Source: a virus
Lineage: Duplodnaviria > Caudoviricetes
Direction: 5' to 3' (one strand)
IMG/VR virus record: IMGVR_UViG_3300029305_005547
Coordinates: 1-64,000 of that record
DNA length: 64,000 bases
Below, piece after piece: positions 4,458 through 24,962 of the stretch. The notes below the pieces were generated by a model. The model did not search any database. It was not told where the DNA came from and saw nothing but the letters and a program-made list of their open reading frames with translations. Position 1 is the stretch's first letter, and each line of letters opens with the position of its first letter. The position numbers were made by a program, and so were the translations under genes.

Positions 4458-7253
4458 TTATATTAAAATATCATCCAAATCAACTTCTGTAAATTTAATT
4501 ACGTTGTCATGGAATTTTTTCATATTGTATTTAGTAAGAGCATTACCAATACGAGATGCGGATAATCCAATTGCTTTATTATCAAGCATATAATAGAAAT
4601 CACCACCACAAATATTACAGATCTCACCCTTTTGTGTTTTAACACAAGTCATAGGAGTTCTAAGCTCTACCACTTTTCCAACATATTTTTTGATATTATC
4701 AGAAGTAAGTAAAACTGGTTTACCCATAACCATGATATATCTGTACATGTAATTTTTGTAGTTATCTTCTGTAAGTTCCATTTTAATTCCGCGTTTAGTT
4801 TGACAATCACTGTCTTTATCACCTAAAAATTCTGTCTGACATTCAGCAAGAAGCTTTTTCGAAATATAGCCAGAGTCTCTAGTTCCGCAAGCTTTCGGAT
4901 AGGCTCCTTCAAGAATTGTATTAGATGAAATAGGAATATCTTTAATTGCGAGACCATCATTAAGAGAATTCTGTACAACCTCATATTGACCAGTTGCTCT
5001 ATTATATACAGCACCTCTCATAAGAGCGATGTTTTTATAGTTATTTCCTAAACTACCACGAGCACCGGAATTATAAAGATCCATACCAATATCATCTTTA
5101 AATACTTCTTTAGTCTTAGCAATAAGTTGTTTTTCAATTTCAGCTGCTATAGTAGCATCACCACTAGCAAGCTCTTTTTCATACTTCTTAAATAATTCTT
5201 TCTTCAGTTTTTCAACTTCAGGATGAATTTTAATTGTTGCAGGTGTAAATGATGGTGTTACGAGAACATGACCTTGTAAAGACATCCAGTCTCTTGTATC
5301 AACATATACATACATTTGATCAGTTGTTATACGTCCTTCAAGTAATGCAGTAGCAATAGTTCTTTCAACTCCACCTAGAAATGCACCTTCAGTCATTTCT
5401 GTATTTATATATCCTAAAATATTAACCATTCCAGATTTTTCAATAAGACCTTTATTGAAAATAAATCTACCTATAGTTGTATCAATAGGTTCTTTATTAT
5501 TACAATAAGTTCCAACTGGAATAGTCATAGTATCCTCTGGATTATATTTCGGATAATATCCATCAGGATGCTCTGTATGACCAAATAATTCAACCAATTT
5601 ATCAAATGTAATGTCATCAGGAGTTAACTTTGTTAAATTATGAATTTCTGACACATTGAGTGACTTATTTGATTTATTTGGATTCTTGGTCATATTATAA
5701 AATGTCTGAATAGCTTCAATCTCTACAAAACGAACTAATGAACCGTCCATTCTTACAAAGAATGAAGGTCTATTCATAACTCTTTCACATTCATCGTTTG
5801 CTTCCTGAGACCACATAATTTTCATAGTTGTTTGATCTCCGTCATAGTCACCGTCAAGTCCAGGCAAATATGAATTCGAAAATCTTACTGAGTCGATAAA
5901 TAATGTAGGTACTTTACTATCAGGAAGATTTAAATCAATATCAGGATAAAAAGGATAAACCTTTTCTCCAACTTGCATAGGTATTGTCTTAGAAGTACTA
6001 AGTACTCTAATCCTTGAAACAAACAGACCATATTGGTCAATTAACGGATAACGTGTTACAATAACATGCTTATCTTTAATAATATCTTCACACGCCATAT
6101 AGAACACATCAGTCCATGTCATTTTTCTGTTTGCAATTGTTGCAAGTTCATCTTTATTTTTCATATCATATCTAGTTCCATGGAAGATAAGGTAAGATGT
6201 CTTACCATTCTTTAATGGAATTTCGATAGGTTTAAATCTTGTATCAGGATCCTTTATATACGAATCCATTTTCTTTTTTAAGAATTTATCAGTAAACACC
6301 AATTCAGGATTTTCCATTTCTACAAGAGAAATCACTTTTCCAGTTTTAGTATCTATTAAATTCTTTTGAGAATCATTCATTAATTCTCGTTCAAAAAATC
6401 CCTTAACCCAATTCATTACAAACGGATGAGCTAAGGATAATACTTGGGCAATAGGAATACCAGTATATCTAAAATTAACCTGCATATCTTCAGGTTTATT
6501 TGCGTGAAATGAAGTAGCTGTGATTACAGTACGTGTACAAAGGTCAACGTTTTTACCCATAAGGTATTTACGAAGTAAACCATTTTTAGACTGTAATTTT
6601 TCTTTAAAGTAATCATAACAATCTACGATTAAATTTTGAATAGCTGCCTGAGAAGAATATAAATTAAAGTTAAATACATCGTTTTCTTTTAAAATAGAAG
6701 CTAAACGAATTGCATTCACATAAAAGTTATTAATCTCAGGAACTTTACCACCACCAGAAGATGACGTAACGTCTCTATAAAATGGAGGAATTACAATAAG
6801 TTTTGACATGAAAACTTCAGCTTTTTTAGATTTCATTACCACATCTATACGTTCATTTCTTGCAGGTGAATCTGTATATTCCCACTTAATTTTTTCCCAG
6901 TTATCATATAAAAATTGGACACCTGTTTCTCCATGAATTTCATCAGATAATACAAGATGACCTTCACTGTTGATGGTATAAAAGGATGATCCATCAACTA
7001 TTTTTTCAACGTTTCTGAAAAATCTTTTGATTATCTTATATATATGAGGATGGAAGAATATGTGCCCTAAATCAATATACGCAAAGGTTTCTTTACGATC
7101 CTTTGGCGTCATACCAAAAATCTGAGTACTAAAGAGTCCTTCCGGATGAGCTATATTTCCTCGTTGCATCATAACGTGAGATGTAACAGGTTTAAGATTA
7201 TTCACCAAGATAAACTCGTCAGTATTAAGTAATTGGACTTTCAATCTTGTCAC
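4458..7253 (-). CDS. rpoC: phage multisubunit RNA polymerase beta' subunit (probably virion RNAP), N-terminus to trigger loop
   Basis: GLFSTQIFG, LMGKNVD..RTVI, RYP, catalytic GDYDGD, SGARGS, TRDSGYISKKL, Zn site RTPMTC..ICNIC, ends just after MKKFH; late promoter upstream. Confidence 0.93.
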   Translation of the reverse strand: MTRLKVQLLNTDEFILVNNLKPVTSHVMMQRGNIAHPEGLFSTQIFGMTPKDRKETFAYIDLGHIFFHPHIYKIIKRFFRNVEKIVDGSSFYTINSEGHLVLSDEIHGETGVQFLYDNWEKIKWEYTDSPARNERIDVVMKSKKAEVFMSKLIVIPPFYRDVTSSSGGGKVPEINNFYVNAIRLASILKENDVFNFNLYSSQAAIQNLIVDCYDYFKEKLQSKNGLLRKYLMGKNVDLCTRTVITATSFHANKPEDMQVNFRYTGIPIAQVLSLAHPFVMNWVKGFFERELMNDSQKNLIDTKTGKVISLVEMENPELVFTDKFLKKKMDSYIKDPDTRFKPIEIPLKNGKTSYLIFHGTRYDMKNKDELATIANRKMTWTDVFYMACEDIIKDKHVIVTRYPLIDQYGLFVSRIRVLSTSKTIPMQVGEKVYPFYPDIDLNLPDSKVPTLFIDSVRFSNSYLPGLDGDYDGDQTTMKIMWSQEANDECERVMNRPSFFVRMDGSLVRFVEIEAIQTFYNMTKNPNKSNKSLNVSEIHNLTKLTPDDITFDKLVELFGHTEHPDGYYPKYNPEDTMTIPVGTYCNNKEPIDTTIGRFIFNKGLIEKSGMVNILGYINTEMTEGAFLGGVERTIATALLEGRITTDQMYVYVDTRDWMSLQGHVLVTPSFTPATIKIHPEVEKLKKELFKKYEKELASGDATIAAEIEKQLIAKTKEVFKDDIGMDLYNSGARGSLGNNYKNIALMRGAVYNRATGQYEVVQNSLNDGLAIKDIPISSNTILEGAYPKACGTRDSGYISKKLLAECQTEFLGDKDSDCQTKRGIKMELTEDNYKNYMYRYIMVMGKPVLLTSDNIKKYVGKVVELRTPMTCVKTQKGEICNICGGDFYYMLDNKAIGLSASRIGNALTKYNMKKFHDNVIKFTEVDLDDILI

Positions 7254-7275: not shown

Positions 7276-7289
7276 TAAATTAGTGTTTT
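7276..7289 (-). promoter_or_regulatory. Putative late promoter AAACA-N6-TAA for RNAP beta'
   Basis: minus strand AAACA CTAATT TAA. Confidence 0.7.
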
Positions 7290-13675: not shown

Positions 13676-15886
13676 ATGATTCAAATTATTAAAAAAGACA
13701 ATACAATTCAGCCTTTTGATATAAGTAAAGTCATTTCGGCTGTTAATAAATCTGCATATAGAGCAATTTACAGATTCTCTGATAATGAAGTCTCACTGAT
13801 AGAGAATTTTGTAACCAGTGCAGTAAATGATCCTAACAATTGGGAGAAAGAAGAAAACGGAGATGGATACCTTACGGTTCCTATGATGCATAATATTGTA
13901 GAAAAATGTCTCACCAATATAGCTCCAACTGTAGCACAAAGTTACAGAGATTACAGAAATTACAAGACATCATTTGTTGCAATATTGGATTCTGTATATA
14001 AGAAATCTCAGGCTATTATGTATATTGGTGACAAAGAGAACGCAAATTCAGATTCTACTTTAGTAAGTACTAAGCGTTCTTTAATATTCGGTCAATTAAA
14101 TAAAGAATTATATCAAAAATTCCAATTAACCGTTAAGCAATTACAGGCGTGTAAAGATGGATACATCTATGTTCATGATATGAGCAGTAGACGTGATTGT
14201 ATTAACTGCTGTTTAGCAGATGTTGGTAATGTGCTTAAAGGTGGTTTTGAAATGGGTAATATTTGGTACAATGAACCCAAATCACTTGATGTTGCATTTG
14301 ATGTTATTGGTGATATCATTCTTAGTGCGGCTGCACAACAGTACGGAGGTTATACAGTTCCACGTATTGATGAAATTTTGATTCCTTACGCACAAAAGAG
14401 TTATGATATTCATTTTAACAAACATTTCAAATCTAAGATGCGTTCTATTATGAACGTTATGGGATATACTTCAGAAGACGAAGTATATCATAATTTTAAG
14501 ACAAACATTGAAAAAGAAGCTCATGAAGAAGCTATGATTGATGTTAGAAGAGAAATGGAACAAGGATTCCAGGGTCTTGAAATTAAATTAAATACTGTGG
14601 CTAGTAGCAGAGGAGATTATCCTTTTACTACATTTACAATTGGTGTATCTACTGATACTTTTGCTTCAATGGCAGCTGAAGTGTGTCTTGAGGTTAGAGC
14701 AAAAGGACAGGGAGCACCCGAAAAGAAAAAATCTGTACTTTTTCCTAAGTTAGTTTTCACATATACTGAAGACTTACATGGAGAAGGTAAAGAATTAAAT
14801 TGGCTTTTTGAAAAAGCATTGGATTGCTCTTTGAGAGCAATGTATCCTGACTTTTTATCACTTGATGGTGACACTGTTGTTGCCAAAATGTGGCATAAAT
14901 ATGGTGAGGTTATTGCACCTATGGGTTGTAGAGCATTCTTATCGCCTTTTTATGAAAGAGGTGGTGCTGAACCTGCTGATGAGGATGATAAACCGTTCTT
15001 TACAGGAAGATTTAATATTGGTGTAGTTTCACTTAACTTGCCAATGATTTATGCTAAATCAAAACAAGAAAATATTGACTTCTATACAGTTCTTGATGAA
15101 TATCTTGAACTTGCAAGAGAAGTTCATATAATGACTTATAATTATTTAGGAAATATGAGAGCATCTACCAATCCGGTTATGTGCTGTCAAGGAGGATTCC
15201 ATAACGGAAATCTTAATCCTAATGATAAGATTAAACCTCTTCTTAGATATGCTACTGCTAGTTTCGGAATTACAGCTCTTAATGAGCTTAATAGAATTCA
15301 CAATGGTAAATCTATTAGAGAAGATGGTCAATTTCCATTAGAAGTAATGGAATATATTAATAAGAAAGCAAAAGAATTTAAAGCTGAAGATCATATAAAT
15401 TATGCAATTTACGGAACTCCTGCAGAAAGTTTATGTGGAACTCAGGTAAATCAATTCCGTGCAAAATACGGTATAGTTGAAAATGTTTCTGATAGAGATT
15501 ATGTTTCAAATTCATTCCATTGTCATGTAAGTGAAGAAATGGATGGAATTGAAAAGCAAGATAAAGAATTCAGATTCTGGGAGTTATTCCAGGGAGGAAG
15601 AATTCAGTACGTTAAGTACGACATAAATTATAATAAAGATGCAGTTCGGTCATATGTAAAACGCGCTATGAAAATGGGATTATATGAAGGAGTTAATTTT
15701 ACTCTTTGTTATTGTGAAGATTGCGGTAAAGAAGGTGTTGGTGTTGATGAATGCCCTAAATGCGGTTCTAAGAATCTAACAAAAATTGAGAGAATGAATG
15801 GTTATCTTTCATATTCCAGAGTACACGGAGATACACGATTAAATTCAGCAAAGATGGCTGAAATTGCAGACAGAAAATCTATGTAA
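13676..15886 (+). CDS. nrdD: anaerobic (class III) ribonucleoside-triphosphate reductase
   Basis: N-terminal ATP cone, INCC, MGCR, YGTPAESL, Zn ribbon CEDC..CPKC, glycyl-radical loop RMNGYL. Confidence 0.97.
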   Translation: MIQIIKKDNTIQPFDISKVISAVNKSAYRAIYRFSDNEVSLIENFVTSAVNDPNNWEKEENGDGYLTVPMMHNIVEKCLTNIAPTVAQSYRDYRNYKTSFVAILDSVYKKSQAIMYIGDKENANSDSTLVSTKRSLIFGQLNKELYQKFQLTVKQLQACKDGYIYVHDMSSRRDCINCCLADVGNVLKGGFEMGNIWYNEPKSLDVAFDVIGDIILSAAAQQYGGYTVPRIDEILIPYAQKSYDIHFNKHFKSKMRSIMNVMGYTSEDEVYHNFKTNIEKEAHEEAMIDVRREMEQGFQGLEIKLNTVASSRGDYPFTTFTIGVSTDTFASMAAEVCLEVRAKGQGAPEKKKSVLFPKLVFTYTEDLHGEGKELNWLFEKALDCSLRAMYPDFLSLDGDTVVAKMWHKYGEVIAPMGCRAFLSPFYERGGAEPADEDDKPFFTGRFNIGVVSLNLPMIYAKSKQENIDFYTVLDEYLELAREVHIMTYNYLGNMRASTNPVMCCQGGFHNGNLNPNDKIKPLLRYATASFGITALNELNRIHNGKSIREDGQFPLEVMEYINKKAKEFKAEDHINYAIYGTPAESLCGTQVNQFRAKYGIVENVSDRDYVSNSFHCHVSEEMDGIEKQDKEFRFWELFQGGRIQYVKYDINYNKDAVRSYVKRAMKMGLYEGVNFTLCYCEDCGKEGVGVDECPKCGSKNLTKIERMNGYLSYSRVHGDTRLNSAKMAEIADRKSM

Positions 15887-20201: not shown

Positions 20202-21017
20202 TTAAACTTCCTCTAACATGCCGTTATCGGGGTTGTAAGCGGTTCTAACACCAGAATCCTGTTCCATAGTGAACTTAGGACAGAACTGCATAGAGTCCAT
20301 AAGAACCTGATACTTCTCAAGCAACTGCTTAGCAATTGCATTGATCTGAGGGCTGTCATACATAGTACAGCTGAATGTGATATCCATTTCAGCGATACTT
20401 GCTTCACCAGCTCTGTAGTTCAAATGGTCCATCTTGATTGTGGTAGGGAAACAGTTTGCAAACATGCAAGCAAATTCGATACCATTGGATTTACCAGTTC
20501 TATCAGTTACAACATAGAAGAATTCTGCAGTGTGATTAGACTGCTTTACTTCAAGGTCCACACCATGATAGGTTGCGAAACCAGACTGCAGATCCATTAC
20601 ACCAGAAACCCACCAATGAAGTACTTCACCCATAGGTCTACCAGAAAATTCGTAAGTAGATACGGTAAAGGAGTTGGTGTTATTCTTAGCGATTGTAGGG
20701 ATCTGGAATTCACGACCAACGTATCCACCAGTGATAGTTTCACTGTTTACGTCGATATCATTAATTCCGGAAATACCGGTATTTGCATACTCCAAAACAT
20801 GCTTAAATTTCTTAAGCTGCTCAGGAATACCATTCTGTTTATCAAGCATGAAGGTAGGCATTCTTGTCATAAACAATCTAGCTTTACCTCCGATGAAAGG
20901 ATCGTAAGACGCAAGAACGTCGTGTGTTACGTCCAATCCACCAAGAAACAACGCATACTTTGTAAGCTGCGCATCATCATGGGTCTTAATACCCTGCTGA
21001 ATAGTTACTGCTGCCAT
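20202..21017 (-). CDS. tail tube protein
   Basis: directly downstream of sheath; ANCFPTTI...MDITF tube-like pattern; high-expression codon usage. Confidence 0.75.
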   Translation of the reverse strand: MAAVTIQQGIKTHDDAQLTKYALFLGGLDVTHDVLASYDPFIGGKARLFMTRMPTFMLDKQNGIPEQLKKFKHVLEYANTGISGINDIDVNSETITGGYVGREFQIPTIAKNNTNSFTVSTYEFSGRPMGEVLHWWVSGVMDLQSGFATYHGVDLEVKQSNHTAEFFYVVTDRTGKSNGIEFACMFANCFPTTIKMDHLNYRAGEASIAEMDITFSCTMYDSPQINAIAKQLLEKYQVLMDSMQFCPKFTMEQDSGVRTAYNPDNGMLEEV

Positions 21018-21035: not shown

Positions 21036-23177
21036 TTAAGCCGCATAATCTCTTCTGTTTACGTCGATTTCAATAATAGCTCTCTTCATCAGAGTTCTAA
21101 ACTGAACTTCTACGTAGCAGTGAAGGATCTGTCTGTCGGACTCCCATTCATTCATATCGAATTTAATATCGAAAGAATGAACAAGGCTGCCAATGATATG
21201 TTCGTACTTAGCCGCTTCGATCTGTCTGAAGGTTGCACGCTCAGAAGCGTTAGCAAAGTTGTACAGATTGTCGAATACGTCCTTTTCAATATTTCTCTTA
21301 AGCCACAGAAGAACATGCATATTGCTCTCTTCAGTGAGATCAGAGTTGATAGTCTGAGCGGTATTCTGAATACCTCTCTGGAATACGTTTTCGCCAATGG
21401 CTTCAACGTAGTTAAGTCTCATATTTGCAAGAGTATCCATGAGATCAGCCTCATGAAGATCAACTGCCGGAACGATAGAGTTCTTAGCATGACCTACAAT
21501 TCTTGCATATGCCTTTGCGAAAGGAGTCTGAATACCGTTAGTCTTCCAATGCTTAGGTAATTCAGAAGCAATGAAGTGAGTAGCGGATACAACAACCTTT
21601 CTCTGAGTGAACGGATCAGAAACCTTCCAGTTATGACCGTTCAAAGAAATAATTCTGTTTGCAAAAATACCGCCATAAAGTTTAGCGATGTTCTTAAGAA
21701 CTGCATTAGAGAAGGTATCATATTCAATACCGGTATCAATGTAGCAAAGAGCATCTGCACGAGCGATAGCAAACTGAGCCAAGGAAATCTTTGTGTAGTA
21801 AGAATAGTTAGCATCAAGCAGATAATCTGCAGGAGTACGTCTTACAGACAAGATTGCCTTATCAAGAATACCACTGTATGCTTTTGCATACATATAGTCT
21901 TCTACGGTAGCTTCACCAAACTTAAGATGAGTAATACCTGCTGTTACAGCAGCATTGTAATCCTTAGTGGAAAGCTTTTCAAGAGCGCCGTTAATAGTAG
22001 TCTTCTTCTCAGTATCGATAAATGTACCGAAAGAACCATCGTGACCACCATTTAAGTAAACGCCGATATCGTTACCCATGCTTACACCATATTCATCATC
22101 CGGAATAGGATAAGAATCATTGTCAGGTGTAATAGCCTGGAAATACTCATACTTGGAAGAAGAATTGAGATTCAAACCAAATAAAAGGTCAAACTCATCA
22201 ATTTCAGGAACTTCCAATTCAACGCCTGTATCTTCTGCAAGACCGGTCAAGAATTCAACGTAAGCATCATAAACAGCTTCAACGCTTTCTTCATATACGC
22301 CGATATTTACAGGATACTCACCTGCGTCGTATTCAGAAATAATATCATCAACGAGCATAGACTCGTTATTAATAACGGAAGTAACAAGGCTACCAACATA
22401 TGTAGCAATCTTCTCAAGACCGTTTTCTGCAGACATAACTTCAAAGGTATAGATCTTTCTCTCATAATCCTTCTCATATTCTGCATTCTTTGTGATTCTC
22501 CACTTGTAGTTGTTTCCATAAACACCACGACCGGTGGAGTTAAATTTAATCAGAGGAAGACATGTCCAGCTATTACCTCCATCGGTAGCTTCAATATCTT
22601 CAACGCCAGCTTTAATCAAAGCGTCCATCTCTTTTACTGTGTGAACTGCACTAGTTCCATCAGTAAGTTTATTGGTTGCAGTATCCACGGTAGGAGCAAA
22701 ACTCTTACTACGGAACATAACCTGAAATACCTGCTTCTGAACATCCTTGGTCTGCTGAGTGATACCATCATCACCGTATACAGGATCACCGTTTTCATCA
22801 ACAACACCTTCAGAAACGGTAACGTTTGCTGTACGATAGTATACATAAACACCAGAGTTAGCATAAGTTGCATCATCCGGCATAACTCTCATACAATATA
22901 CAGATGTGTAACCAGATCCAAGAGAAGCATAGGGCATCATAAGCGCCTGACCATATTTCTTATAGTCAGTAGGACCGAATACATTTTTAAATGACTTCTG
23001 GTCTTTCATTTTTACGATTTTATTATCAATACCCTTACCAGATCTGAAGACATGAATCGTTTTGATTGTGTCATCAGTTTCTACAGCAGGAGTATCATAA
23101 ACCTCTGTATTGTCGTAGATAAATGTCTCGACATGAGGGTATTGTCCTTTAGGGACAATCTGGATTGCTGATGCCAT
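21036..23177 (-). CDS. contractile tail sheath protein
   Basis: 713 aa; FKNVFG, YCMRV, LNGGHDG, LLDANY, C-terminal VEVQF..IIEIDV; late promoter at ~23203-23216. Confidence 0.85.
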   Translation of the reverse strand: MASAIQIVPKGQYPHVETFIYDNTEVYDTPAVETDDTIKTIHVFRSGKGIDNKIVKMKDQKSFKNVFGPTDYKKYGQALMMPYASLGSGYTSVYCMRVMPDDATYANSGVYVYYRTANVTVSEGVVDENGDPVYGDDGITQQTKDVQKQVFQVMFRSKSFAPTVDTATNKLTDGTSAVHTVKEMDALIKAGVEDIEATDGGNSWTCLPLIKFNSTGRGVYGNNYKWRITKNAEYEKDYERKIYTFEVMSAENGLEKIATYVGSLVTSVINNESMLVDDIISEYDAGEYPVNIGVYEESVEAVYDAYVEFLTGLAEDTGVELEVPEIDEFDLLFGLNLNSSSKYEYFQAITPDNDSYPIPDDEYGVSMGNDIGVYLNGGHDGSFGTFIDTEKKTTINGALEKLSTKDYNAAVTAGITHLKFGEATVEDYMYAKAYSGILDKAILSVRRTPADYLLDANYSYYTKISLAQFAIARADALCYIDTGIEYDTFSNAVLKNIAKLYGGIFANRIISLNGHNWKVSDPFTQRKVVVSATHFIASELPKHWKTNGIQTPFAKAYARIVGHAKNSIVPAVDLHEADLMDTLANMRLNYVEAIGENVFQRGIQNTAQTINSDLTEESNMHVLLWLKRNIEKDVFDNLYNFANASERATFRQIEAAKYEHIIGSLVHSFDIKFDMNEWESDRQILHCYVEVQFRTLMKRAIIEIDVNRRDYAA

Positions 23178-23246: not shown

Positions 23247-23972
23247 TTACATCTTAATGATTTCTTCAATAGGTGAAAATTGTTCTGTTCCCTTATTTCG
23301 TGATCGGTTAATAGACGTTGTTAACATACTATCCATATCCTCGAATGTAAGTGATGAGAACGTAGATGCGTACTGACATATTTGCCTAGTTCCGACTGTT
23401 ACGTAAGCATATGGAGAGACATTAATATCTCCACCATAAATTTTAGCAAATGGTTCCGAAAGATTAGATGGGTTTCTATAATTAAGTGCTATAACCATTT
23501 CTTCAACTTCAGGTCTAACACCAAAATTAACTTTATTAACCATCTTATTTTTTTGGCAGAGTGAAGCTGCCATGTCATATGGTACACTGGAAGGAACCTT
23601 TCCATTCATTACCATGTCTAAATACTGTAATGATGACTGTGCATCCTGAATGATTTTTGAATTCATTAATTTCATATTCTTATTATATTTAAGAACCTTA
23701 CATGGTGTTTCTCCACCAGGTAAGTTGACATTTCTGTTTTCTGAATCATATACATACACAGTTATCTGATACGGTTGTTTCATAACTCTATAATTCTTGA
23801 GTTTTCCATTTTCGAAAATTCCTACATAAAATAACCCCAAAGTTTCAATATATGAAGAATAATCGATTGCATATCTTTTACTTTGGTCGAAAAATTCAAG
23901 TGGAATATAAAATTCCATATAGTCGGTATCTAGGTAGACATAATTGCTATCTTTACGAAAATAACCAGCCAT
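23247..23972 (-). CDS. probable RNAP beta' C-terminal fragment (separate subunit)
   Basis: AAAGGAGG RBS before ATG 23972; GV..EMVIA..., STFSSLTFEDMDSMLTTSI similar to SF.SAASFQETTRVLTEAA, SPIEEII; late promoter. Confidence 0.6.
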   Translation of the reverse strand: MAGYFRKDSNYVYLDTDYMEFYIPLEFFDQSKRYAIDYSSYIETLGLFYVGIFENGKLKNYRVMKQPYQITVYVYDSENRNVNLPGGETPCKVLKYNKNMKLMNSKIIQDAQSSLQYLDMVMNGKVPSSVPYDMAASLCQKNKMVNKVNFGVRPEVEEMVIALNYRNPSNLSEPFAKIYGGDINVSPYAYVTVGTRQICQYASTFSSLTFEDMDSMLTTSINRSRNKGTEQFSPIEEIIKM

Positions 23973-24042
23973 GAGTCCCTCCTTTCCACCAAAAGTATCC
24001 GAGCTTAGTAAACTGTTTTTCAAGTTAAAAATCGGATAAATT

Positions 24043-24359
24043 GACCGGAGTGAGCATTGTAAACTCACTCCGGTCTCAGGTTATTTTTGCCGTCTTAGGT
24101 ACTACTTTATCACTGTGTATTGATGCTGTTGGATCCATTCCTAACCGCTAAACACCGTGAGTAGTGTTTCCTCCTATTCGGCTTATTTTGCTCGGCATCT
24201 TCCGAGCCCTTGTAATGCATAGGTACAGACACATCCATCAATGGCGGCACAAGCGCGGCCAAATCCCACATACCCCGACCAGAACTAAATCTGACGGGTC
24301 TCATCCATCCAAGGCAGCGCAATTATCCGGTTGCCGCAAAGGTCCATACCCTTTGCATT
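24043..24359 (-). ncRNA. candidate structured ncRNA (~315 nt)
   Basis: GC-rich intergenic island; AACA-N6-TAA promoter at 24358-24370; multiple stems; terminal hairpin 24043-24075. Confidence 0.6.
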
Positions 24360-24455
24360 ACTTATTTGTTATAGTTTGTATAAAAAAATATTTTTTAATT
24401 GTAATTAATGAAGTTTTAACATATATTATTTTAATGGATTGGAGGAAAATATAAT

Positions 24456-24962
24456 ATGATATATCCAGATATGTTAACATCTGTAAAATATACAGAGCGT
24501 TGTAAAAAAGATTTAAGAGAAAAACCATGTGAAAATGACGATGGTTACATAATTTATATTAAGTCAATGATTAATCATGGAAAAACTGTAGATACTTTAG
24601 CGAGTAATGATAAATTTCATTTAATGCAATTTACAGATGCTCATACATTTTTAATTACAAATAATTTACGATTAAAATTTACTGAAGAAGAAGAGAGCTA
24701 TATTCAAGCTGCAATTCAGCGTTCTTTAAATATGGTAAAAGCATTCAATATTTTAAATCATCCATCAGATGGACCTATGTATTTTGAAGAATTAAAAGAA
24801 GTTCAACAACAAGTTGTTTATAGAATTCAAAAAGTAATCGAAAACCCTTATGAGCATATACCTTTAGAGGTTCAAAAATCTATTTCAGACGAAAGTTTAT
24901 TTACTACAGAAGATGTGCATGATTTTAATTATTTTGTAACTACAGGTGATAAAGAATTATGA
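24456..24962 (+). CDS. hypothetical protein
   Basis: early motif 24422, GGAGG RBS. Confidence 0.75.
   Translation: MIYPDMLTSVKYTERCKKDLREKPCENDDGYIIYIKSMINHGKTVDTLASNDKFHLMQFTDAHTFLITNNLRLKFTEEEESYIQAAIQRSLNMVKAFNILNHPSDGPMYFEELKEVQQQVVYRIQKVIENPYEHIPLEVQKSISDESLFTTEDVHDFNYFVTTGDKEL

Follow-up and report, generated by a model that had tools for sequence, protein, structure and literature searches.

A probable late transcription unit for a structured noncoding RNA ahead of the tail genes of an AR9/PBS1-like jumbo phage

The window analyzed here covers the opening 64 kb of an IMG/VR virus record that is 278,849 bp (~279 kb) long. An intergenic region spanning 23973–24455 separates plus-strand genes that start at 24456 from a divergent minus-strand structural operon. 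The first gene of that operon, including its strong ribosome-binding site, occupies 23247–23987 (RBS 23987–23977, ATG at 23972) and encodes a 241-aa virion structural protein (23247–23972); it is followed by the genes for the tail sheath (21036–23177) and tail tube (20202–21017), with assignments to phrog_2926, phrog_19666 and PF23806. The element described below thus lies upstream of the tail operon, where the sequence-only reading of this DNA had placed it. The 241-aa protein is 28% identical to a virion structural protein of the Bacillus phages AR9, PBS1 and vB_BpuM-BpSp, and jumbo phages of Staphylococcus and Listeria have further related proteins; the sheath and tube, like the virion protein, are kin of those of AR9, PBS1 and Staphylococcus jumbo phages. 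In addition, an ORF at 4458–7253 is β′-like and carries an RNA polymerase active-site domain (PF00623, 26.3 bits against a cut-off of 25.3). Because its structural genes are related to those of AR9 and PBS1 and because of this β′-like ORF, the phage can be placed, from its genes, as a distant uncultivated member of the AR9/PBS1 group. Phages of this group have uracil DNA and two unusual multisubunit RNA polymerases. In three Staphylococcus jumbo-phage records, homologues of the 241-aa protein are labelled “viral RNA polymerase beta-prime subunit”, while the AR9 and PBS1 records name the same homologue a virion structural protein; a Pfam search of the 241-aa protein returned no match to back the beta-prime label. 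A gene for an anaerobic ribonucleotide reductase (NrdD with ATP-cone; 13676–15886, plus strand) suggests an anaerobic host.

The intergenic region contains a GC-rich island (24030–24371) whose 250-nt peak is 0.50; the genome as a whole averages 0.321 (sd 0.044), which puts the peak 4 sd higher. A single place in the 279 kb is higher (island 209238–210007, peak 0.512), making the GC-rich island already remarked on in this AT-rich genome its second most GC-rich 250-nt stretch. The minus strand was predicted to fold with a minimum free energy (MFE) of −115 to −120 kcal/mol (z = −4.4 to −5.1 against dinucleotide shuffles, with 0 of 100 shuffles as good); the fold of the plus strand is good as well (z −4.8), though less stable (−103 kcal/mol). 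Rfam 15 yielded no match at the gathering score across the whole window, so the novelty proposed earlier survives that comparison, and at E ≤ 10 the RNA region gave snoU19 (15.8 bits) and ST7-OT3_4 (12 bits) alone, both noise. The families covered included tRNA, tmRNA, RNase P, 6S, pRNA, group I/II introns, riboswitches and GOLLD/ROOL/HEARO. ARAGORN found no tRNA and no tmRNA, and the remark that no hallmarks of tRNA, tmRNA or RNase P could be recognized agrees with both searches.

Two late promoters and one early-type promoter can be recognized by comparison with AR9, in which the late consensus has been experimentally defined as AACA-(6N)-T(A/G), with the last base as start site, and the early consensus reads AAATATATATTAT-(6N)-G (PMC5312081). 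The first late promoter, P1 (24359–24371, minus strand), comprises T-AACA at 24370–24367, the 6-nt spacer AATAAG, T(−1) at 24360 and A(+1) at 24359. Its full string, TAACA-AATAAG-TAA at 24371–24358, fits the AR9 late consensus; the AACA-AATAAG-TAA promoter pointed out previously on the minus strand is therefore present. Eight of ten related loci keep AACA-N6-TA and then A[TC]G where the RNA begins, L016 and L018 having near-consensus variants, and in relatives the motif is kept amid otherwise unalignable AT-rich DNA. TAACA-N6-TAA is under-represented in the window (4 seen versus 8.4 expected from shuffles), and its occurrence at P1 is therefore not background; two of the four copies head ORF-free units. 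Late promoters that are likely real also occur before genes in the form AAAACA-N4-TTTAA, for example at 7287(−), 10609(−), 10633(+), 13640(+), 59083(+) and 59926(+).

The second late promoter, P2 (24004–24017, minus strand), consists of AACA-GTTTAC-TA at 24017–24006 with a start at 24006, serves the virion-protein, sheath and tube genes, and sits ~25 nt past a 12-bp hairpin that follows the GC-rich body. P2 (AAAACAGTTTACTAAG) and a preceding T-rich box are conserved in most relatives above ~77% identity, including L025 and L026, which carry no RNA. A search of viral contigs with the exact P2 pattern matched two previously known loci and no others. On the divergent side, an early-type promoter at 24421–24436 (plus strand), ATATATTAT-N6-G, for the genes beginning at 24456, matches the AR9 early consensus and is conserved among relatives.

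Initiation at P1 and termination at the hairpin would yield a noncoding RNA of ~320–330 nt (24030–24359, minus strand), its 5′ end being taken from the promoter and its 3′ end (~24027–24040) from the hairpin and T-tract. All sequences listed in the sequence-only reading were located on the minus strand, and comparison with relatives now sorts the stems drawn from them. The branched 5′ domain (24214–24359), modelled by MFE and two-sequence alifold, is predicted to close by pairing AAUGCA (24359–24354) with UGCAUU (24219–24214). Its first hairpin, GCAAAGG/CCUUUGC (24356–24336), was recovered as a sequence but fared less well as a structure, since it acquires one A·A mismatch in the closest relative, L023, and the MFE fold prefers the AAUGCA/UGCAUU closure. 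Neither 5′ closure beat shuffled controls, and a 5′ closing stem as a general rule was dropped because it did no better than shuffles. Within the same domain, the hairpin CCCG-UCAGA/UCUGG-UCGGG (24298–24274) is backed by relatives, with A–U to G–C and G–U to A–U changes in L023. A middle hairpin, GCUCGG-AAGAUG-CCGAGC (24190–24207), contains the GCUCGG/CCGAGC stem noted before; it too is backed by comparison, being invariant in L023, and L016 bears a different hairpin at this position.

The 3′ domain is a 101-nt rod of nested stems (24084–24184), delineated with covariance model R1 and a manual motif-anchored check. It comprises stem A (24182–24179 with 24092–24089), stem B (24165–24160 with 24106–24101) and stem C (24159–24152 with 24118–24111), with an apical stem beyond. 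An AAACAC/GUGUUU hairpin had been suggested here (24169–24150); its letters are present but belong to the nested covarying stems ACUACU/AGUAGU and CACGGUGU/ACACAGUG, and the hairpin is superseded by stems B and C. The proposed long-range pairing of AUUGAUG (24242–24236) with CAUCAAU (24125–24119) could likewise be found in the letters but loses two of its seven pairs in L023. The body is followed by a terminator-like element (24027–24075), in which a 12-bp GC-rich hairpin (24075–24043) precedes a T-rich tail (24042–24027). This end hairpin, described correctly at the outset, is a perfect 12 bp and draws support from G–C to A–U and C–G to U–G changes in L023. Its T-run begins more than 2 nt past the stem, which is why a simple terminator scan omits it; the T-run abuts the stem in most relatives.

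Searches with the DNA itself failed to reach relatives: blastn against 50,697 phage records and nhmmer of the RNA against 11 related loci gave no match. Homologous loci were therefore found through the neighboring protein; metagenome and second viral scans added just L033 and L037. Ten lineages carry a like unit upstream of P2, built to one design: AACA-N6-TA or a near-consensus variant, an RNA start A-A-U/C-G, and a 200–420-nt GC-enriched, ORF-free body. All of these related units close with a 12–15-bp hairpin, different in sequence in each unit, and then a T-run. The bodies can be aligned among closest relatives alone and are unalignable between lineages whose neighboring protein is 81% identical.

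Between the window RNA and L023 (87% identical), 14 of 172 paired columns changed (8%), versus 44 of 154 unpaired columns (29%), and 10 of 11 changed pairs still pair, two having changed on both sides and eight by way of G–U. Such G–U intermediates fit the minus strand as RNA. Model R1, built on the window RNA and L023 alone, recovered the syntenic stretches in L016 (E 4.5e-8) and L034 (E 6.7e-7). In the rod alignment, which is fitted to the model and hence biased toward structure, and in which four sequences align confidently, pairing holds in 95% of cells, and both sides have changed in 13 of 26 pairs; slid controls with partners moved by 1–3 columns gave 24–55% paired and one or two pairs changed on both sides. 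A manual check anchored on the two conserved loop strands found the same nested stems in six lineages, with stems B and C made of wholly different sequences in each. The full arrangement of stems A–C around AGGA..GGAAAC/ACCUAA before a terminator was found in the window, L023, L016 and L034, and L027 (14.0 bits) and L017 (11.8 bits) matched at the expected syntenic place, below significance. A second body type gave a similar result, with 10 of 10 changed pairs still pairing between L002 and L033 and five of them changed on both sides. The covariation check proposed for this element thus found paired columns spared and changes that are compensatory in two close pairs and across lineages, which argues that the pairing is under selection. 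Comparison of the L002-type RNA (L002: 2088–2435) with L033 (1058–1436) also revealed a 32-nt insertion that merely lengthens one hairpin, which shows RNA bodies growing by helix extension.

The rod has a conserved asymmetric internal loop between stems A and B, where AGGAGGAAAC faces ACCUAAG. The purine-rich, Shine–Dalgarno-like 5′ strand (AAUAGGAGGAAAC, 24166–24178) is kept as AGGA-(0–2 nt)-G(G)AAA(C/U) in the window RNA, L023, L016, L034, L027 and L017. The conserved 3′ strand (ACCUAAGA, 24093–24100) contains ACCUAA, invariant in the window RNA, L023, L016 and L034 and replaced by CCUAAA in L027 and ACCUUA in L017. The letters of the 5′ strand are exactly those of a ribosome-binding site used by these phages. 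One real ribosome-binding site, in a relative of 63% identity (L042: 1501–1535; G002 88398–88432), has ~16 nt identical to stem A plus the 5′ loop strand (GCCGAAUAGGAGGAAA). Several roles for the loop were considered and set aside. A Shine–Dalgarno sponge pairing with 16S rRNA is weakened by interruption of the GGAGG core in L034 (GGAAGG) and L027 (GGAUGG); a K-turn is disfavored by the lack of conservation of the G·A positions beside stem A, and an 11-nt tetraloop receptor by a 5′ strand that differs from the canonical receptor strand.

The unit has a patchy distribution. In L025 and L026, which have a neighboring protein of 85% identity, precisely P1, the RNA and its hairpin are missing, and P2 is retained; in this natural relative, at least, the unit is dispensable. 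No such unit was found at the locus in the distant relatives L028–L032, L037, L004–L012 and AR9. In a tree of the neighboring protein, the carriers form one clade (85/77 support) with L025 inside it and outgroups without the unit, a pattern that fits one gain and a later loss; the tree is poorly resolved within the carrier clade, and the order of body-type changes is unreadable from it. The bodies of other lineages (L002, L018 and L021) do not align, and for this reason the “family” may comprise several unrelated RNAs or be loosely constrained. A search with covariance model R2 gave no further copy elsewhere in the genome, and on nine related records including AR9 its sole match was the real ribosome-binding site in G002. 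At the same locus in a 64%-identity relative, L028, L029 and L030 (1261–2000) have a 740-nt AT-rich gap with ~10 copies of TGATTCATT at 35–50-nt spacing and a 57-nt inverted repeat, an iteron-like array that is a possible origin of replication.

Among described systems, the late transcription units of AR9 offer one comparison. The two phages share the late promoter grammar with the last base as start site (PMC5312081), their lineage as judged by structural genes and split multisubunit RNA polymerase genes, and the ATATATTAT-N6-G type of early promoter on the divergent side; an AR9-type promoter thus occurs here together with a β′-like RNA polymerase ORF and AR9-like structural genes. In contrast, AR9 has no counterpart at the locus, its virion-protein gene following another gene after 94 nt, and a search of AR9 with model R2 came up empty. 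The AR9 non-virion polymerase units include internal and antisense late transcripts (PMC5312081); the main text of that transcription paper reports no ncRNA gene of this kind, the word “noncoding” occurring 0 times, and in the literature on the AR9/PBS1 group we found no ncRNA described.

In organization, the closest parallels are the short promoter–terminator RNAs of giant Pseudomonas phages. ONT-cappable-seq of phiKZ and 201phi2-1 identified short 5′UTR or intergenic RNAs, such as sRNA005 before the tail protein gp277/gp182 (PMC10914365, PMC11512511). Those RNAs are likewise structured and likewise consist of a start site and a near terminator directly before a gene for a structural or tail protein, and their phages are again jumbo phages with RNA polymerases of their own. 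However, they stay below 250 nt, and read-through from the same start site gives the downstream mRNA, whereas the RNA predicted here is ~320 nt (~200–420 in relatives), GC-rich and made of several domains, and beyond the terminator the gene has a promoter to itself. A start–terminator unit before the gene is thus present here, yet it is followed by a separate conserved P2 and exceeds the <250-nt size; the RNA is larger and autonomous in its layout. Phage group, host phylum and promoter type also differ, and no relation in sequence would be expected. GOLLD, ROOL and HEARO RNAs are also phage-borne, highly structured and noncoding, but none gave an Rfam match at E ≤ 10, and the RNA here reaches at most about half their size and occurs in one narrow clade. 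Similarly, phi29 pRNA and 6S RNA keep their fold while sequence drifts, and their paired ends and rod shape recall the 3′ domain. Unlike them, the RNA here has no Rfam match, a late rather than early promoter, and two domains instead of a single rod with a central bubble; the related phage AR9 has a large terminase, and nothing ties the RNA to packaging or RNA polymerase.

Taken together, the locus is probably an “RNA moron” of an AR9/PBS1-like jumbo phage: a late transcription unit, autonomous in its layout, for a new, dispensable, trans-acting structured late ncRNA. In outline this bears out the earlier suggestion of a late phage RNA, possibly undescribed, under a late promoter of its own, a reading supported at the level of sequence by the empty Rfam search, the promoter, the lack of codon conservation and the compensatory substitutions. 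In the proposed mechanism, the non-virion RNA polymerase would start at A24359 from the AACA-N6-TA promoter and make a GC-rich multi-domain ncRNA of ~320 nt, with a predicted stop at the 12-bp hairpin and its T-rich tail; 25 nt further on, P2 would drive the tail genes independently. The product would consist of a branched 5′ domain, in which pairing is predicted for the first bases, then a short hairpin in the middle and a 3′ rod of 100 nt. In Gram-positive hosts, RNA is stabilized by pairing at its 5′ end together with a strong hairpin at its 3′ end, and on that ground we infer that the RNA would accumulate late and act in trans, perhaps as a protein- or ribosome-binding scaffold or decoy operating through the conserved loop; the trans action is a guess. 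Its role would be accessory and fast-evolving, tied to interaction with the host or to late regulation and not to a core assembly step, as its turnover and presence/absence pattern seem to resemble accessory host-interaction functions more than core morphogenesis. Two specific modes of action were tried and rejected. A CsrA-type sponge finds GGA motifs enriched in the window RNA and L016 alone and not in the other seven RNAs, mostly outside loops, and an antisense regulator of phage mRNA finds no above-chance complementarity in the rest of the 279-kb genome, the best stretch being 13 nt (E ~1).

The first alternative is a cis-acting leader, in which the P1 transcript is the structured 5′ leader of the tail operon, the hairpin a conditional attenuator-type terminator and the short RNA a by-product. 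The unit is indeed co-oriented with the structural operon and directly upstream of it, and 5′UTR terminators in phiKZ and 201phi2-1 give abundant short RNAs together with read-through mRNAs, one of them before a conserved tail gene (PMC10914365, PMC11512511). The conserved P2 between hairpin and gene speaks against a leader: it is retained in relatives without the RNA, so that the operon does not need P1. Moreover, the size of the body far exceeds that of an attenuator, its sequence is too variable for a ligand-binding aptamer, and the sole candidate antiterminator pairing, ACUCAC/GUGAGU, is weakened in L023 by sequence inspection. With a body that cannot be aligned across lineages, no conserved antiterminator and a gene that has its own promoter, the locus does not resemble a riboswitch or attenuator, and we regard a leader as possible but unlikely.

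A loosely constrained or decaying element is very unlikely on present evidence. By this account the GC-rich inverted repeats matter as DNA or not at all, the locus being either what remains of a lost gene, an intron or a mobile cassette, or else a feature acting as DNA, such as a spacer or insulator that keeps the divergent early and late promoters apart. Very fast turnover, with a body unalignable where the flanking protein is 81% identical, would be expected of such an element, as would clean loss in one relative; the folding of both strands and the non-significant 5′ closing stem point the same way. Against these stand the conserved late promoter and terminator architecture that frames all carriers, the retained GC content 4 sd above the genome mean, and the sparing of paired columns with compensatory change in two independent close pairs and across lineages. 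Many of the kept pairs are, in addition, G–U on the minus strand; they would be A·C mismatches on the other strand and are weak as DNA.

A small protein gene, be it the 70-aa sense ORF or a micro-ORF behind the Shine–Dalgarno-like loop, is scarcely credible: the 70-aa ORF (24322–24110, TTG start) exists and the loop AAUAGGAGGAAAC resembles the ribosome-binding sites of the phage group, but the 70-aa frame shifts after ~17 codons in L023, where the region is 87% identical in DNA, and no homologue has a start codon 5–10 nt past the Shine–Dalgarno-like loop, the nearest GUG opening at most 4 codons. The 96-aa antisense ORF is likewise broken in L023, and neither ORF has a counterpart in L016 or L002. 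The codon-pattern conservation that would speak for a gene is thus absent from both ORFs of the island, which break frame in the closest relative, and no frame combining a start and a ribosome-binding site with retention in relatives was found; on these comparisons, the unit is noncoding.

The preferred reading of an autonomous late RNA unit can be set beside further candidates in the same genome. A genome scan for a late promoter, no RBS-supported ORF of at least 40 aa and a hairpin with a T-run returned four further units, starting at 57258(−), 113478(+), 236498(+) and 263260(+), which with 56182(+) make at least five; in three of these five, the 5′-terminal bases pair with those immediately preceding the terminator. 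Two lie in the window: at 56171–56397 (plus strand), a ~215-nt unit starts at 56182 and its first 12 bases pair with pre-terminator bases, and at 57014–57270 (minus strand), a ~225-nt unit starting at 57258 combines a 10-bp 5′ hairpin with a 17-bp terminator stem. The others, at G000 113478–113700, 236498–236700 and 263260–263450 (plus strand), are ORF-free units of 170–210 nt with late promoter and terminator; units 113478 and 263260 have a common hairpin followed by UAUGAAWAUUCCAA and closed ends, and may form a paralogous small-RNA family. Elsewhere, a 702-nt ORF-free gap between same-strand ORFs (G000 168493–169194; L038: 994–1695) reaches a GC content of 0.50; it had no Rfam match at E ≤ 0.01 and may represent an intron or a further large RNA. 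The RNA ahead of the tail operon looks like one narrow-clade family, and late RNA units look like a general habit of these phages. A more far-reaching proposal, decidedly doubtful at this stage, is that AR9-like jumbo phages of anaerobic gut or rumen hosts carry a repertoire of late structured RNAs made by their own polymerase, with about six such units in this genome alone, the tail-locus RNA being a ribonucleoprotein component, a decoy, a pRNA-like assembly or packaging cofactor, or a ribosome-binding-site mimic that captures a translational or immune factor of host or phage late in infection, with its fast evolution reflecting an arms race.

To our knowledge, ncRNAs of lytic phages are barely charted. 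The locus offers a clean case, combining a consensus late promoter, a discrete terminator, a compensatory fold, natural deletions (L025/L026) and body swaps (L002, L018, L021). Even if the P1 transcript were a mere leader, the locus would still document tandem late promoters with a terminator between them before the tail genes. Should the RNA be made, it would follow that the non-virion polymerase transcribes genes dedicated to RNA, and the unit would supply a defined promoter–terminator pair for in vitro work on that enzyme and raise the question of what role several late RNAs per genome play.
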